DNA of 35,796 bases from Corallococcus terminator (lineage in GTDB: Bacteria > Myxococcota > Myxococcia > Myxococcales > Myxococcaceae): the NCBI RefSeq assembly GCF_003611635.1, contig NZ_RAVZ01000061.1:1-35796 (forward strand), read 5' to 3'. The position numbers and the translations under genes were made by a program. The notes under the pieces were generated by a model. It saw only the letters and a program-made list of their open reading frames with translations. It made no database searches and was not told the origin of the DNA. Positions 30,361 to 35,796 of the stretch are shown piece after piece. Every line of letters begins with the position of its first letter. The first letter of the stretch is position 1.

Positions 30361-30620
30361 TCTGGCTGCCATCCGCCAACAGTCACAAGACGGCGGAGCT
30401 GCCCACCGCGATGCAGGTCCAAGCCCAGACACTGGCTTCATTCGTGGACGCCCTGCGCGGCGCGGGCTTCCCTCCCGAGGTCTTGAGCGGCGCCTCCACG
30501 CCCACCCTCTGGCAATCCCACGCAGTGCATGGCCTCACGGAGATCCGTCCAGGCCTCAACGCACTGAACGACCGCAACAGCACCCGACGAAAGTCCGGAC
30601 TGGACGGGAGTCGAGGGGCT
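30361..30620 (+). pseudogene. Decayed, internally deleted fragment of the alanine-racemase-N-domain (D-serine-dehydratase-like) gene found intact at 31515..32603
   Basis: 30361..30393 resembles 31625..31663 (both ending '...cacaagacggcggag'). 30394..30595 then matches 32060..32262 ('ctgccc[a/g]ccgcgatgcagg...gaccgcaacagcac') at roughly 90% identity. The junction sits at a shared 'ggcgga[g/a]' microhomology. The frame is disrupted and there is no start. Confidence 0.65.
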
Positions 30621-30671: not shown

Positions 30672-31424
30672 ATGCTCCTTTCCAAGAACGACTTCCTTCC
30701 GCGCGCGGAGGCCACGCTCGCCCGGCTGGACGGTGCCCTCAAGGATGCGCTCTCCCATCAGGGCGCACCCCTGGTCACCTCCCTGGGGAGGGCGTTCCCC
30801 AAGGACGCGCCCCTTGAGCCCGCCGGACTCGCGAAGGCGCTGTGTCCCGGGCCTGTCTCGCATGTCGGCCTGGCGGCCGTGGTGATGCGCGAGTTCCTCG
30901 AACCCGTGGACGCCGTGCTGGACGCGTCGCTGTCCAAATCCACGGTCGTGACGGGGAACGCGAAGGCTCCCGGTTCGCTGCTCGTCACCTGTCCCCTCCT
31001 CGTGCTGGGCGACCTGGAGGTCGATGGATTCCTGGACGACTGCGGACCGGATTCGACCATCGTGGTCCTGGGCCGGTGTGTGGCGAAGGGACTGCGAACG
31101 TCGGGGAACTTCCTGGTCCTGGGCGACCTTGTGGTCCGGGACGTCATCCAGGGCGTCTACAACGATGAGAGTCTCATCGTGGCGGGCAACCTGACGACGC
31201 GCTTCCTGGATGAGAATGATCACGAAGTCGCGTGCTACGGAGAACTCCACGCGGAGCATCGCTTCGAGAACGGGCGCTCCGACGAAGAGGCGGCGTTACA
31301 GGCCTCCGCCTTCCTGGTGCCCGGGCTCTGGAACATCGATTCCGGTGAAATCGACCACGACGAACTCTTCGCACGCATCCGGCGGAACGAGCCGGTCTTC
31401 ACCGAAACGAAGAAGCACCCTTGA
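30672..31424 (+). CDS. Hypothetical protein with beta-helix-like V/L-G-D repeats (bactofilin-like pattern, unverified)
   Basis: The 250-aa product has AGGA upstream. Repeats 'LLVLGDLEVDGFL','IVVLGRCVAKGL','FLVLGDLVVRDVIQG','LIVAGNLTTRF' suggest a beta-helical core. Confidence 0.6.
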   Translation: MLLSKNDFLPRAEATLARLDGALKDALSHQGAPLVTSLGRAFPKDAPLEPAGLAKALCPGPVSHVGLAAVVMREFLEPVDAVLDASLSKSTVVTGNAKAPGSLLVTCPLLVLGDLEVDGFLDDCGPDSTIVVLGRCVAKGLRTSGNFLVLGDLVVRDVIQGVYNDESLIVAGNLTTRFLDENDHEVACYGELHAEHRFENGRSDEEAALQASAFLVPGLWNIDSGEIDHDELFARIRRNEPVFTETKKHP

Positions 31425-31514
31425 AGTAAATGGCCTCGGGTGACGTTGCCTGCCGCATGTCGGTTCGAGCACCCACGACGGGAGTACTGGAGGACATCCG
31501 CGCCCGGTGCCAGC

Positions 31515-32603
31515 ATGGGCCGCATGCCCTCCTTCGACTCGCTCGACACCCCCGCCGCCATCGTCGACCTGGACCGCGTCGAGCGGAACCTCCAGCGCGT
31601 CGCAGCCTATGCGCGCGAGCACGACCTGCGCTGGCGACCCCACACCAAGACACACAAGACGGCGGAGTTGGGCGCGCTCCAGGTGGCCGCGGGCGCATCA
31701 GGCGTCACGGTGGCCACGGTCCTGGAGGCCGAGGTCATGGCCTCCGTGTCCGACGACGTGCTGCTCGCGTACCCGCCCGTGGGGGCCCGCCGGCTCGCGC
31801 GGCTGATGGCCCTTCCCCCACACGTGCGCATCTCCGTGGCGCTTGATTCCGTGGAGGTATTGAACGGGTTGGCGCTCGCGGCCCGGGACGCGGGACGCAC
31901 CGTGGGCGTGCTGGTGGAACTGGACCTGGGCATGCGCCGGGTCGGGCTGCGCACGCCGGACGAAGCCGTGGCCCTGGCCCGCGCGGCGGCCTCCACGCCG
32001 GGCGTGTCCTTTCGCGGGGTGACGTTCTACGCGGGCCACCTCCGGATGCCCCAGGCGGAACTGCCCGCCGCGATGCAGGCCCAATCCCAGACACTGGCGT
32101 CGTTCGTGGACGCCCTGCGTGGCGCGGGCCTCCCTCCCGAGGTCGTGAGCGGCGGCTCCACCCCCACCCTCTGGCAATCCCACGCAGTGCACGGCCTCAC
32201 GGAGATCCGCCCGGGCCTCAACGCGCTGAACGACCGCAACAGCACTGTCATCGGCGCCAACGACTGGACGGAGTGCGCCTATTCGGTCCTTGCCACCGTG
32301 GTGAGCACCGCCGTGTCCGGGCAGGTGGTCATCGACGCGGGGGCCAAGGCGCTCGCGAAGGAAGAGGGCCTCGCGCCCGGGTACGGCGTCCTGCTGGACC
32401 GGCCGGAGGTCGTGGTGAAGAACCTGTCGGAAGAACACGGCCTGCTGGATGTGTCGGCCACAACGTGGCGACCCCGCATCGGGGACCGCGTGCGCGTGGT
32501 GCCGAACCATGTCTGTGTTTCCGTCCCCATGCACTCGCGGCTGCACGTCGTCCGAGGCGATACAAGCGTGGCGACCTGGGACGTCGCGGCGCGCGGCTGG
32601 TAG
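31515..32603 (+). CDS. Fold-type III PLP enzyme, alanine-racemase-N-terminal-domain protein (D-serine dehydratase / D-threonine aldolase-like)
   Basis: 'PAAIVDLDRVERNLQRVAAYAREHDLRWRPHTKTHKTAELGALQ' matches the family N-terminus and includes the PLP-Lys context. The product is 363 aa. The start is 31515 or 31524. Confidence 0.85.
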   Translation: MGRMPSFDSLDTPAAIVDLDRVERNLQRVAAYAREHDLRWRPHTKTHKTAELGALQVAAGASGVTVATVLEAEVMASVSDDVLLAYPPVGARRLARLMALPPHVRISVALDSVEVLNGLALAARDAGRTVGVLVELDLGMRRVGLRTPDEAVALARAAASTPGVSFRGVTFYAGHLRMPQAELPAAMQAQSQTLASFVDALRGAGLPPEVVSGGSTPTLWQSHAVHGLTEIRPGLNALNDRNSTVIGANDWTECAYSVLATVVSTAVSGQVVIDAGAKALAKEEGLAPGYGVLLDRPEVVVKNLSEEHGLLDVSATTWRPRIGDRVRVVPNHVCVSVPMHSRLHVVRGDTSVATWDVAARGW

Positions 32604-32655: not shown

Positions 32656-33672
32656 CTACATGCTGAGTTGCGGGTCCCTCGCCGCTCCCCAGTCCTTCAC
32701 GCCCACCTGCCCCATCGAGGCGGCGACGTCCTCTCCGGGCTTGGGCTTCGTCTTACGGACGGCCTCGAGGTCCTCGAAGTTGAACTTCGGGTAGATGAGC
32801 CCCGCGAACACGTAGTCCGTCACGTTGATGTCCAGGCCGCCCAGGATGGGTTGCCCATCCCGGGTGATGGAGCTGGGCAGTTGGTAGCACATGATGGACG
32901 TCTGATCCGCCGGGGTGGCGAAGATGGACTGATCATCCAGCGGGGTGAGCACCTGCTGATCGACCGTCTCCTTGTCCCAGCCCTGCGTCGCGAGGAAGTA
33001 CGCGTAGGCCTTGTCGGGGTCGATTCGCGCCACCAGTTCGCGCCGCATGTGTTCGTGCGGGAAGCCGAGCGTGTGCCCTGCCTCATGCCGGACGACGCGG
33101 CTGTATTCGGAATCCGGGGTGCTCATCGTGAACCCCTCGAGGTTCATCGTCGGCTCGTCGGTCGGGATGAGCTTCACGTCCGTCCCGAGGTACGACCAGT
33201 AGCCCCCCGGCCCCCGGGAGATCCGGATATCACCGGTCCCATTCGTTTCGATGAAGGAGACACCGCCGCTCGTCGCCCAGGCATTCAGGTGGCTGACGAT
33301 GCGAGCGCGGAGGTCGGCCGGTGCGGACTCCATGAAGCTGACGGTCAGCTCGCGGGTGGCCGGCCCCCAGTACTTCGACGTCAGGAGCGCGATCCGCAAC
33401 GGATCCAGCGGGAGGTCCGCGCCCACGGCGGCCATGGGCCCTGCCTGCGGAGCATTGACCGGGTTGATCTTCCTGGCGACCTCCGCCGCCTTCACCAGCA
33501 GGCGGCTGGGGAGGACCTTCAGCGAGCAGCCGCCCCGGCTCGCGGGGGTGACCACCACGCGACCATGGCCATTGCCATGCTCACGCTCCGATGGCTTGTA
33601 TTCCTGTGTCGCCTTCCGAGCCAGCTCGGCAATCTTTAGCAAGGCGTCACGGTACCGCTCTGTTTCACTCAT
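32656..33672 (-). CDS. Astacin-like (M12A) zinc metalloprotease without recognisable signal peptide
   Basis: 'VRHEAGHTLGFPHEHMRRE' matches HExxHxxGFxHE. The Met-turn is 'TSIMCY' (astacin SxMHY). The N-terminal ~100 aa are hydrophilic. Confidence 0.8.
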   Translation of the reverse strand: MSETERYRDALLKIAELARKATQEYKPSEREHGNGHGRVVVTPASRGGCSLKVLPSRLLVKAAEVARKINPVNAPQAGPMAAVGADLPLDPLRIALLTSKYWGPATRELTVSFMESAPADLRARIVSHLNAWATSGGVSFIETNGTGDIRISRGPGGYWSYLGTDVKLIPTDEPTMNLEGFTMSTPDSEYSRVVRHEAGHTLGFPHEHMRRELVARIDPDKAYAYFLATQGWDKETVDQQVLTPLDDQSIFATPADQTSIMCYQLPSSITRDGQPILGGLDINVTDYVFAGLIYPKFNFEDLEAVRKTKPKPGEDVAASMGQVGVKDWGAARDPQLSM

Positions 33673-33783
33673 GGCTCCACCTCCACTTATCCCTGAGGGA
33701 AAACTGGAGACGGCGCGTGCGCCAACAAGGCCACGAGTTGGTTTCAGGCCTTCCGTGCGCCGAAGCGTTTCAGCCGACGGCCG

Positions 33784-34779
33784 TCAGAGGAGCCGCTGCA
33801 GTTCCTGGGTGAGCACCTCTTCCAGGTGCCGGATGCTGCGATAGACGAGGCAGCGATAGCTGGACACGTCGAATCTCAGCTCCCGCACGTCCCGCACCAG
33901 CAGCAGCGTGGGCTTGCCCCGCCCCCAGGCGTACCCCACTTCCAGATACACATTGGGGTTGGCCAGCGACAGGTCCGCGATGACGACCTTCGCGGTGTCG
34001 ATGCGGTCCCGGATGCGCTGGATGATGGGGCCGTCGAAGGTGGCCTGATCCACGCGTTCGCAGAGCAGCCCGGCGGACTTCACCGGCCCCAGGATGCCGT
34101 AGTGGTAGGTGTCCTCCAGCTCCGGCGCGAACGGCATCGCCACGAAGGCATGGGGCTTCTCATTCGAGTTCGCGCCCGCGCTGGCCATGGGCGCCGCCGC
34201 GACGAAGCGTGACGTGCGCCGGACGCGAAAGCCCATGCCGCCGGGCAGGGGCTCTACCCCCGCAGTGGCGCCCAGGCCTGTCGCCAGGGCCTTGCGCATC
34301 CGCTCCACGCGCTTGGGATTGATTTCCACCACCGTGACGCGCTCCAGGTCGCGCGGCCCCACGCCCCGCTGGAAGGCCTCCACGAAGCCGCCCACCAGGG
34401 CCAGCACCGCTTCGTCCTCGTCGAGCCCATAGTTGGGCCCGTGCACCGTGCACGCGAGGTGGCGGAGCGTCGGACGCGGCTCCAGGAGTTGAAGCGCGCG
34501 GACGGAGAACTGGCGGATCTCGTGGTAGCCGAACTGACGCAGGCGCACCGTGCCCAGGAAGAGCACCCAGGGCGAACCCAGGCCGCCCCGGGTCTCGATG
34601 AGGCGGTGGTCCCCGGGAAGCACCGTGAGGGTGTCCGTGGCGATGCCCACCCCTTCCAGCCGCCGGGCCACCGCGCCGTCCGCCCCGTGGAAGCCCTGCG
34701 CATACTTCAGCAGGACGGCGTCCGCGGCCGTCTCTCCCACGTCCCCCAGGTCCACGACGACGTCGAGTGTGTCTCCCAT
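33784..34779 (-). CDS. Macro domain fused to a SLOG-superfamily nucleoside 2-deoxyribosyltransferase-like (TIR-like) domain
   Basis: I take the start at 'MGDTLDVVVDLGDV' (34779). The upstream ORF frame translates as R/S/P-rich junk. The N-terminal half matches the macro pattern ('DLGDV..AADAVLL.YAQG..GADGAVARRL', 'LRHLACTVHGPNYGLDEDEAVLALVGGFVEAF'). The C-terminal half matches the NDT-like pattern ('HAFVAMPF...VVIADLSLANPNVYLEVGYAWGRGKPTLLL'). Confidence 0.75.
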   Translation of the reverse strand: MGDTLDVVVDLGDVGETAADAVLLKYAQGFHGADGAVARRLEGVGIATDTLTVLPGDHRLIETRGGLGSPWVLFLGTVRLRQFGYHEIRQFSVRALQLLEPRPTLRHLACTVHGPNYGLDEDEAVLALVGGFVEAFQRGVGPRDLERVTVVEINPKRVERMRKALATGLGATAGVEPLPGGMGFRVRRTSRFVAAAPMASAGANSNEKPHAFVAMPFAPELEDTYHYGILGPVKSAGLLCERVDQATFDGPIIQRIRDRIDTAKVVIADLSLANPNVYLEVGYAWGRGKPTLLLVRDVRELRFDVSSYRCLVYRSIRHLEEVLTQELQRLL

Positions 34780-34807
34780 GGGCACGGAACTGTAGTCAGT
34801 CGTGCCG

Positions 34808-35512
34808 TCAGGCTCCAGCCACCGGCAGGAAGCGGTCGAACCAGCCCAGGGCCTCATCCCAGACACGCCCCCAGCCTGCTTCGGTGAAGAGGTGTCCTTC
34901 GCCGTCGTGTTCAACGGAGCGAAGCCGCTCGGGGGCGCTCGCGTAGCGCGGCGCGAGCGCATGGTGGAAGGCCCGCGCGTCCGACGCCGGCACCAGGGTG
35001 TCCGCTGCGGCCGTCTGCAAGAGCAGCGGCGTCGGGAAGTATCGCTCCAGCCGGGCGTGAGGCCGTGGCGGCGGAGCAACCACGCTCACGGCCGCGTCGA
35101 GCACCGCACCGGCTTCGATGGCGCCAAAGAGGATGGCGCCCCCCAGGGAGATGCCACAGGCACCCACCGCGCCCGGCCGCGACCAACCCAATTCGGCGAG
35201 GACCCCGAGCACCGTGGGAAGCTCCAAGGCGGCATGCGCGACGAGCTCCGCGAAGCTGTCCGCCGCGCGGTCGGGAGCGAAGCGGTGTTCGAAGTCCGGG
35301 TGGCGCCGCTCGCCATGCCCCACCGCGTCAAGGATCACCGCGACGTACCCATGCCGGGCCAGCAGCCGCGCCTCGGGGCGCTGGACCTCCTTCGACGCCC
35401 CCAGCCCGTGCAGGAGCACCACCGTGCCCCGGAGGCCCGGCGCAGGAGCCGGTCCCCCGCCGACAATCAGGGCCGGTGCGTCCGCGAGCATCACCCGTTG
35501 CTCTGACGACAT
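34808..35512 (-). CDS. Alpha/beta hydrolase (dienelactone-hydrolase-like esterase)
   Basis: 'VVLLHGLGASKE' precedes the nucleophile elbow 'GACGISLGGAI'. GGGAGGTG lies 5 nt upstream of the ATG at 35512 (the ORF track uses the GTG at 35518). It is 28 nt upstream of the macro-SLOG gene on the same strand. Confidence 0.8.
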   Translation of the reverse strand: MSSEQRVMLADAPALIVGGGPAPAPGLRGTVVLLHGLGASKEVQRPEARLLARHGYVAVILDAVGHGERRHPDFEHRFAPDRAADSFAELVAHAALELPTVLGVLAELGWSRPGAVGACGISLGGAILFGAIEAGAVLDAAVSVVAPPPRPHARLERYFPTPLLLQTAAADTLVPASDARAFHHALAPRYASAPERLRSVEHDGEGHLFTEAGWGRVWDEALGWFDRFLPVAGA

Positions 35513-35694
35513 GATCACCTCCCGACTCTCCCATCAATGCCTTGCACGCGCCAACGCGTTGTATGGCAGACTGGACAACCGCAAGGCTTTGCACGTGGAA
35601 GCCTGGCTGCCTGGCAGGCTTTTCAACCACCCTCTCGAAGGGTGTGAACCATTTCACTGCCCCTGTCGGACCCAGTCGCTAGCGTCCCGGCACC

Positions 35695-35796
35695 ATGTCC
35701 CTGTTCGCGCGCCTCCAGGCCCTGCTGTCCGCCCACCCCGCCGCCCCGGAAGCACCCGCCGGGCAGGCGCCCGCGACCGCTGCTTCACCTTCCGCC
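35695..35796 (+). CDS. Possible 5' end of a gene running off the window (MSLFARLQALLSAHPAAPEAPAGQ...)
   Basis: An ATG at 35695 opens a frame to the window edge. There is no clear RBS, and only 34 codons are visible. Confidence 0.2.
   Translation, partial: MSLFARLQALLSAHPAAPEAPAGQAPATAASPSA

Follow-up and report, generated by a model that had tools for sequence, protein, structure and literature searches.

In Thoeris systems, macro domains such as that of TM-macro ThsA sense the ADP-ribose (ADPR) and IAD signals that are made by TIR domains (PMC11204291). A TIR-DrHyd-SLOG assemblage has been described by the Aravind laboratory (PMC9503650), in which DrHyd is the name for the nucleoside 2-deoxyribosyltransferase (NDT) superfamily, and the effectors catalogued for EAD, vWA-MoxR and STAND conflict systems include DrHyd, TIR and Macro domains (PMC7159879, PMC8195603). 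The gene studied here joins members of two of these groups in one chain. It is located at 33784..34779 on the minus strand of a 35,796-nucleotide stretch of Corallococcus terminator DNA (contig NZ_RAVZ01000061.1; this whole stretch is called the window) and encodes a protein of 331 amino acids, hereafter the dyad protein, which comprises an N-terminal divergent macro-fold domain (residues 1–190, 34210..34779, minus strand), an inter-domain linker (residues 191–207, 34159..34209, minus strand) and a C-terminal NDT/DrHyd-type, TIR-related N-glycosidase-like domain (residues 208–331, 33787..34158, minus strand). The best reading of the dyad is an uncharacterised, widespread family of macro + DrHyd sensor-effectors. 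A sequence-only reading of the locus had described two co-oriented genes at 33784–35512, a macro and SLOG/NDT/TIR-like fusion and an alpha/beta hydrolase; both genes are present as described, and the motif strings that it quoted, GDVGETAADAVLLKYAQGFHGADGAVARRL, HGPNYGLDEDEA and VVIADLSLANPNVYLEVGYAWGRGKPTLLL, are all found in the translation. The literature on macro and deoxyribosyltransferase domains together yielded the Thoeris macro paper alone, and the obligate macro-like + DrHyd unit is undescribed in accessible papers.

The dyad gene is not a chance open reading frame, since its G+C content at third codon positions (GC3) is 0.88, its product has 1678 homologues in the database, with full-length orthologues at 57–98% identity, and its alignment-based AlphaFold2 model is confident, with a mean predicted local distance difference test score (pLDDT) of 87. 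Predicted disorder is confined to residues 194–205 of the linker, where the pLDDT falls below 50, and the linker is variable and gapped in the alignment. The N-terminal domain could not be named by the sequence libraries: Pfam Macro (PF01661) gave no match at E ≤ 1 for the dyad protein or at E ≤ 10 in 45 orthologues, the NCBIfam scan of the dyad protein gave no match, and neither Pfam nor NCBIfam holds a model for the domain. HMMER searches of PDB sequences with the full-length, N-domain and C-domain profiles yielded marginal matches alone: for the N-domain profile the PARP15 macro domain was the best match at a non-significant E of 0.24, and a Ppx/GppA match at E about 1 in this set of searches was judged spurious. 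The fold was settled by structure, because nearly all Foldseek matches of the AlphaFold2 model of the N-domain are macro domains (E 5e-9 to 1e-5, template modelling (TM) score about 0.7) and the model displays the three-layer alpha/beta/alpha macro fold.

Alignment of the N-domain profile with a YmdB alignment by hhalign (E 6e-5, 148 columns, probability 65%) provided the residue mapping. The adenine-contacting G10-D11 of YmdB corresponds to G12-D13, the catalytic D35 to D34, and G83-P84 to G76-T77, and the loop 2 segment S-T-G-V-Y-G (S122 to G127) corresponds to H113-G-P-N-Y117-G118, with Y126-G127 opposite Y117-G118. The canonical N-x6-GGG motif is missing in the same alignment, where N22 and N25 of YmdB fall opposite L24 and A27 in a loop that is three residues shorter; loop 1 therefore has neither the MacroD-type N-x6-G-G-[VLI] pattern nor its catalytic Asn, and the aspartate D34 alone is retained. 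Conservation was assessed in 86 dyad proteins that are 30–48% identical to that of the window. The adenine aspartate D13 is 86% conserved, G118 of the loop 2 G-x-[YF]-G is 97% conserved and position 117 is aromatic in 78%. Residues D20, K25, A27, G32, D34, Y85, T111, H113, G114, G118, D120, E121, E123, G131 and R157 are conserved at ≥92–95%, with H113, G114, G118 and D120 at ≥95% and E121 and E123 at about 92%. The family-defining motif H113-G-P-N-Y-G-L-D120-E121-D-E123 (34411..34443, minus strand), identified from this conservation and the YmdB alignment, occupies the macro loop 2 position (S-T-G-V-Y-G in YmdB). On the basis of the distinctive conserved set and the YmdB mapping, the N-domain is classed from its sequence as a separate macro clade in which the adenine and diphosphate elements are kept and the distal-ribose side appears to be rebuilt. 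The macro assignment of the earlier reading consequently holds for the fold and fails for a canonical Macro domain.

The C-terminal domain exhibits the flavodoxin-like five-stranded NDT-type fold with a catalytic glutamate, E280 (codon GAA at 33940–33942), at the start of helix 3, within the active-site motif N274-P-N-V-Y-L-E280-V-G-Y-A-W-G286 (33922..33960, minus strand) that was assigned from the MilB and DNPH1 alignments. The nucleoside 2-deoxyribosyltransferase family PF05014 scored 26.1 bits, under its gathering cut-off of 28.8, and was matched by 45/45 orthologues with a best E of 3.7e-6. The PADLOC model PDLC00733 ('Effector, TIR') matched the domain at E 4.7e-13 over 73 residues covering the Glu-containing core; no Pfam TIR family was matched, and PF10137 appeared in one of the 45 orthologues at E 0.07. 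When the C-domain profile was searched with HMMER against PDB sequences, MilB was found at a marginal E of 0.17, with YLE280VGYAWG aligned to HVEIGWASG of MilB (the deposited 4ohb sequence has Ala at that Glu). The hhalign comparison placed E280 opposite E104 of DNPH1 (GVGYE104LG) at a probability of 16%, with the Glu segment alone aligned; the numbering used for E104 agrees with the D80 mutant in the PDB title of 8rps. A separate model of the C-domain (pLDDT 88) matched NDT, BcmB, DNPH1 (TM 0.75) and the SARM1 TIR domain in Foldseek, with the RPS4 TIR also among the structural matches; NDT-family structures outscore the TIRs, and the closest solved fold is MilB, a biosynthetic CMP hydrolase. 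Because of the PF05014, PADLOC, MilB/DNPH1 and Foldseek results, the C-domain is placed in the NDT (DrHyd) branch of the TIR-DrHyd-SLOG assemblage, outside the SLOG branch. The NDT/TIR-type half of the former label is thus upheld, with the catalytic Glu in place, and the SLOG half is not, as the closest relation is not LOG/SLOG.

All 45 orthologues carry E280, as do 64 of the 86 family members (74%), and C240, E241 and Y313 are conserved across the family. Strand 1 of the C-domain reads A-F212-V-A-M-P-F, and the position of F212 is occupied by Phe in 70, Leu in 6, Tyr in 5, Val in 4 and Ile in 1 of the 86 dyads. In NDT and DNPH1 a Tyr enforces 2'-deoxy substrates, and the corresponding residue of NADase TIRs is Phe or Ala (PMC11204291). 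Since Phe212, and not the 2'-deoxy-enforcing Tyr, appears to stand at the strand-1 position, a ribonucleotide such as nicotinamide adenine dinucleotide (NAD+) may be a possible substrate of the C-domain.

Pairing of the two domains is obligate. When the N-domain profile was used in an exhaustive HMMER search, 1058 cluster representatives (50% identity) were recovered at E ≤ 1e-3, of which 317 reached E ≤ 1e-30, and nearly every full-length representative also carries the same C-domain in a local hmmsearch. The dyad gene was found in at least 541 species in a scan of one genome per species, with Myxococcota dominating, and full-length relatives at 42–50% identity were observed in Acidobacteriota, Chloroflexota, Bacteroidota, Gemmatimonadota, Binatia, Gallionellales, Leptonemataceae, Armatimonas and a Methanosarcina (archaeon), so that outside Myxococcota the distribution is patchy across phyla. 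The TIR-fused dyad genes of two Ktedonobacteraceae metagenome-assembled genomes (MAGs; L067, 3568–5157, and L071, 3064–4560) have a GC3 of 0.29–0.31, whereas that of their flanking genes is about 0.50, and the GC3 filter of the gene call rejected the dyad gene in seven higher-GC loci; both results hint at recent horizontal acquisition outside Myxococcota. Four dyad orthologues at 50–72% identity carry unexpected organism labels, namely L028 (BNCN01000010.1, 'Comamonas sp. KCTC 72670') and L050, L051 and L060 ('uncultured Enterobacterales' MAGs); L028 shows Myxococcus-type synteny with a D-Ser-dehydratase-like gene, L050 and L060 have 69–72% GC, and the labels look wrong, the sequences probably being from Myxococcota. 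Hypothetical proteins about 30% identical to the C-domain (about residues 211–323) and devoid of the macro-like domain were also observed in temperate phages of S. aureus (H2–H10) and in a Dorea phage (H1).

Extra domains precede the dyad in longer relatives, except for one in which the addition separates the two halves. TIR_2 is fused in P0126, P0128, P0135 and P0164 and in the Ktedonobacteraceae loci L067 and L071; CHAT in P0142 and P0255; caspase C14 in the Methanosarcina locus (L072); EAD1 in P0151; and EAD7 in P0268 and P0171. These partners belong to the set of effectors and adaptors used by NTP-dependent conflict or apoptosis-like systems in multicellular bacteria. In P0126 (505 amino acids) the N-terminal TIR, at residues 12–166, is ThsB-like (PADLOC PDLC00420, E 1.2e-58), making this protein a candidate one-polypeptide analogue of Thoeris. 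Another relative, P0158 (719 amino acids), has a full Hsp70 (PF00012, E 5e-183) before a macro-like domain at 552–718 and ends at a contig or gene-call boundary; this fusion could be real or an artefact. The fate of E280 differs with the architecture: it is kept in 44/45 solo dyads, replaced in 17/17 members of the TIR-fused class with an extension of 126–134 amino acids (11 Gln, 6 other) and replaced in 4/7 of the EAD class, so that its loss is almost confined to TIR- or EAD-fused members. The macro-domain invariants and C240, E241 and Y313 all persist in the E280-replaced proteins, and the fused TIRs retain their own W-x-x-x-E Glu. Because E280 is lost in the TIR-fused class and the TIR Glu and macro invariants are kept, the simplest reading of these alignments is that the C-domain's chemistry can be supplied by a TIR instead, which would support a TIR-like N-glycosidase (NADase-type) activity of the C-domain where E280 is kept, as in the window. 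At the family level, the ThsB-like TIR, CHAT/caspase and EAD fusions thus bear out the proposed link to nucleotide signalling and anti-phage systems, and a local defence module is not borne out.

The dyad gene starts with an ATG at 34779 and stops at 33784–33786, and its start Met is shared by 45/45 aligned orthologues. A longer product from a TTG at 35079 was rejected, as it overlaps the hydrolase gene and its extension is present in no orthologue. The M. xanthus DK1622 orthologue MXAN_3123 (L001, 8001–9053) is annotated with 350 amino acids, and its N-terminal extension of 19–20 residues is unique among the orthologues, so that its start codon has probably been called too far upstream. The closest loci are those of a Myxococcaceae MAG (98% protein identity) and C. 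praedator (96%). Upstream of the dyad gene lies the alpha/beta hydrolase gene (dienelactone-hydrolase-like; 34808..35512, minus strand; Pfam DLH, Hydrolase_4 and Abhydrolase_1), the product of which has 235 amino acids; its ATG start is preceded by the Shine-Dalgarno sequence GGGAGGTG, and a GTG at 35518 is another possible start. The two genes are separated by a spacer of 28 nucleotides (34780..34807, minus strand), within which no purine-rich Shine-Dalgarno for the dyad gene is found, as had been noted from the sequence. No promoter or terminator consensus was found in a scan of 33500–35796, which was centred on sigma-70 and is weakly informative for Myxococcota. In this strain the hydrolase and dyad genes probably share a transcript.

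In M. xanthus (MXAN_3123) and Corallococcus, the dyad gene lies in a syntenic block with genes for DnaJ, SpoIIM, RDD, GerE, MbtH and Lnb_N, a convergent D-Ser-dehydratase-like gene, and genes for Peptidase_S9 and S13, and the neighbours in Archangium and a Myxococcales MAG differ from this block. All-vs-all clustering of neighbours in 55 loci gave lineage-specific synteny alone and no family common beyond close relatives, and the genes examined upstream of the dyad gene in eight distant loci have unrelated housekeeping roles (ThrE, PMT_2, amidase, DUF885, CutA1, NrfD/4Fe-4S and sodium:solute symporter), with a PCMT methyltransferase downstream in one distant locus. No recurrent defence or partner gene was found near the dyad gene across these 55 clustered and eight annotated distant loci. 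In Myxococcaceae the dyad is a solo, vertically inherited chromosomal core gene without a defence island here; its setting is a syntenic housekeeping region in Myxococcus and Corallococcus and unrelated housekeeping genes elsewhere. Two local irregularities were also observed in the window. An astacin/zincin-like metalloprotease gene (32656–33672, minus strand; Pfam Astacin 22.6 bits against a cut-off of 22.5) stands between the dyad and D-Ser-dehydratase-like genes in the window, L005 and L038 only, and is regarded as a recent insertion because, in Myxococcus and the other Corallococcus, the dyad and D-Ser-dehydratase-like genes converge with nothing between them. A direct repeat of 192 nucleotides at 92% identity (30392–30583 vs 32054–32245; also 30362–30401 vs 31631–31670) has as its upstream copy a fragment of the D-Ser-dehydratase-like gene (31440–32603, Ala_racemase_N + D-ser_dehydrat), just before an unannotatable ORF of 250 amino acids (30672–31424, no Pfam match), and looks like a partial gene duplication from local rearrangement or insertion.

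The reading favoured here, held tentatively and judged to fall just short of probable, is that the dyad protein acts as a ligand-gated N-glycosidase of ribonucleotides or NAD+ and constitutes a sensor-effector cassette of conflict or cell-death systems, present in Myxococcaceae as a solo core gene. In this scheme a soluble two-domain protein, with the divergent macro domain followed by the NDT/DNPH1/MilB-type domain, would bind an ADPR-type nucleotide (ADP-ribose, an ADPR conjugate or another NAD-derived signal) through the adenine-contacting D13 and the G-x-[YF]-G diphosphate loop, at a pocket whose distal-ribose site is predicted to be remodelled (K25, D34, Y85, H113, D120, E121, E123 and R157). 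The bound ligand would then gate the C-domain, or the macro domain would deliver the substrate to it, and the Glu280-dependent N-glycosidase, with Phe212 at strand 1, would cut the base-ribose bond of a ribonucleotide, NAD+ being the prime candidate. The dyad would thereby act as a self-contained sensor-effector cassette with a logic analogous to that of Thoeris ThsA, and other lineages would have wired it to ThsB-like TIR, caspase/CHAT or EAD adaptors of abortive-infection and programmed-death systems. A more specific version, which we consider unlikely, makes the dyad an undescribed single-chain 'ThsA-like' sensor-effector, in which the remodelled macro pocket (K25, H113, D120-E121-x-E123) would recognise or process a specific TIR-made ADPR conjugate and so switch on the ribonucleotide/NAD+ N-glycosidase, the solo version having been domesticated as a core gene in Myxococcaceae, where it might serve programmed cell death during development or defend the population against phages.

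Several observations weigh against the ligand-gated glycosidase. The invariant His, Asp, Glu, Lys, Tyr and Arg set of the N-domain is more conserved than E280, so that the macro-like domain could be the catalytic centre; the absence of N-x6-GGG, with a profile-profile probability of 65%, means that ADPR binding is not assured; and Phe212 is equated with the Tyr by its place in strand 1 and not by a computed alignment of structures. No TIR, STAND or other defence gene lies near this copy, in a region that is conserved and looks like housekeeping, and no lineage shows a conserved neighbour of the solo dyad, as would be expected just as much of a metabolic enzyme. Searches of phage and plasmid collections with tblastn yielded C-domain-only relatives and not the full dyad, and neither experimental work on any family member nor papers on MXAN_3123 were found in the searchable literature.

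A metabolic role takes its clearest form in a housekeeping bifunctional enzyme of nucleotide salvage or detoxification, in which the C-domain would hydrolyse a (ribo)nucleotide N-glycosidic bond as MilB, DNPH1 and LOG-type enzymes do, and the macro-like domain would hydrolyse or bind an ADPR-type by-product (O-acyl-ADPR, ADPR-1''-phosphate), with no part in conflict or cell death. It is consistent with the single-copy-like orthologues throughout Myxococcaceae at 57–98% identity, with the synteny to DnaJ, SpoIIM, RDD, GerE, MbtH and D-Ser-dehydratase-like genes that is conserved in Myxococcus and Corallococcus, with neighbours such as ThrE, amidase, CutA1, PCMT and NrfD elsewhere, and with MilB, a biosynthetic CMP hydrolase, as the nearest solved C-domain fold. 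The repeated fusions to ThsB-like TIR, CHAT/caspase and EAD death-like adaptors, however, are hallmarks of conflict and cell death and not of salvage, the patchy spread outside Myxococcota and the low GC3 hint at horizontal transfer, and the loss of E280 specific to the TIR fusion argues for TIR-like chemistry; a salvage enzyme is rated rather doubtful. The macro-like domain might instead be the enzyme, forming a new catalytic clade (H113, D120, E121 and E123 with K25, D34, Y85 and R157) that would act like PARG in hydrolysing a glycosidic or ester bond to ADPR, the C-domain serving mainly for nucleotide binding or TIR-style oligomerisation. The conservation of the N-domain polar residues at ≥92–95% in the 86 dyads, against 74% for E280, points in this direction, as do the retention of C240, E241 and Y313 and the D-E-x-E acidic cluster after macro loop 2, which adjoins the distal ribose site of canonical macro domains. 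Yet E280 is present in 44/45 solo dyads and in every one of the 45 Myxococcota orthologues, a pattern that implies that the C-domain is under selection for catalysis here, and the acidic cluster is only presumptively placed at the scissile position; catalysis by the macro-like domain is regarded as improbable.

The sequence-only reading had further proposed the hydrolase as a functional partner in a two-gene NAD/ADPR-processing or defence operon. The two genes are on the same strand, 28 nucleotides apart, with no terminator or promoter consensus between them. Against this, the hydrolase adjoins the dyad gene in 7 of the 84 fetched loci (two of which are the same contig), all in one Corallococcus sub-clade (L002/L011, L005, L012, L013 and L038), and is not beside it in other Corallococcus, Myxococcus, Pyxidicoccus, Archangium or any of the distant lineages; within the sub-clade the hydrolase is less conserved than the dyad gene (69–91% vs 90–98%), and it has no PADLOC match. 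The hydrolase is a lineage-specific incidental neighbour outside the module, and the partnership is dismissed as very improbable.

If the ligand-gated glycosidase reading is right, the dyad represents a new macro clade, distinguished by a conserved polar site of its own, and a new pairing of sensor and effector for immunity or cell death based on NAD/ADPR, and it provides a natural experiment on the takeover of NDT-like chemistry by a TIR; if the single-chain 'ThsA-like' version were true, the TIR-fused forms would be complete one-protein Thoeris analogues. As the dyad is a conserved core gene in the social, developmentally lysing Myxococcaceae, MXAN_3123 of M. xanthus offers a tractable model for asking whether effectors of conflict systems were recruited for multicellular development. 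Under the housekeeping alternative, the dyad would be a new bifunctional nucleotide-processing enzyme of ordinary interest.

Compared with known systems, the N-domain shares with the MacroD, Af1521 and PARP9-PARP14 macro domains the G-D adenine motif, the Asp equivalent to D35 of YmdB and the G-x-[YF]-G of loop 2; it differs from them in having no PF01661 match, in a loop 1 that is three residues shorter and without the catalytic Asn and GGG, and in the dyad-unique invariants K25, Y85, H113, D120, E121, E123 and R157. The C-domain shares with the NDT superfamily (MilB/BcmB CMP hydrolases, DNPH1 (Rcl) and nucleoside 2-deoxyribosyltransferases) the nucleophile Glu in h-E-h-G-h at the start of helix 3 and sub-threshold PF05014 matches in all orthologues, whereas it stays below the Pfam gathering threshold with 11–23% identity to solved members, has a presumed Phe-for-Tyr exchange in strand 1 and the extra invariants Cys240-Glu241 and Tyr313, and is always fused to the macro-like domain and partnered with TIR, caspase and EAD domains. 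Its likeness to the TIR NADase effectors of CBASS, Pycsar and bacterial NLR systems (PADLOC 'Effector TIR', Cap12/PycTIR PF10137; SARM1) consists of the PDLC00733 match (E 4.7e-13), the SARM1 and RPS4 TIR structural matches and a Phe at what is presumably the position where NADase TIRs typically have it (PMC11204291), but 73 residues alone match the PADLOC model, no Pfam TIR match is observed and NDT structures score higher. The EAD-, vWA-MoxR- and STAND-linked effectors (Kaur et al. 2020, 2021) resemble the dyad family through EAD1/EAD7, CHAT/caspase and TIR fusions in relatives, through the listing of DrHyd and Macro among them (PMC7159879, PMC8195603) and through the enrichment of the dyad family in Myxococcota, whereas the copy in the window lacks an EAD and is not flanked by an NTPase, vWA or MoxR gene. 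With respect to Thoeris, no TIR gene corresponding to thsB was found among the called neighbours in four orthologous loci, and the PADLOC ThsA and ThsB models gave no match for three genes of this locus. Relative to ThsA (SIR2-SLOG or TM-macro) the domain order is reversed, with the sensor N-terminal in the dyad, the effector is NDT/DrHyd-like and not SIR2 or transmembrane, and the macro domain is of a separate clade without N-x6-GGG; what the dyad shares with ThsA + ThsB is a nucleotide-sensing domain joined to an effector domain, together with relatives such as P0126 that carry an N-terminal ThsB-like TIR.

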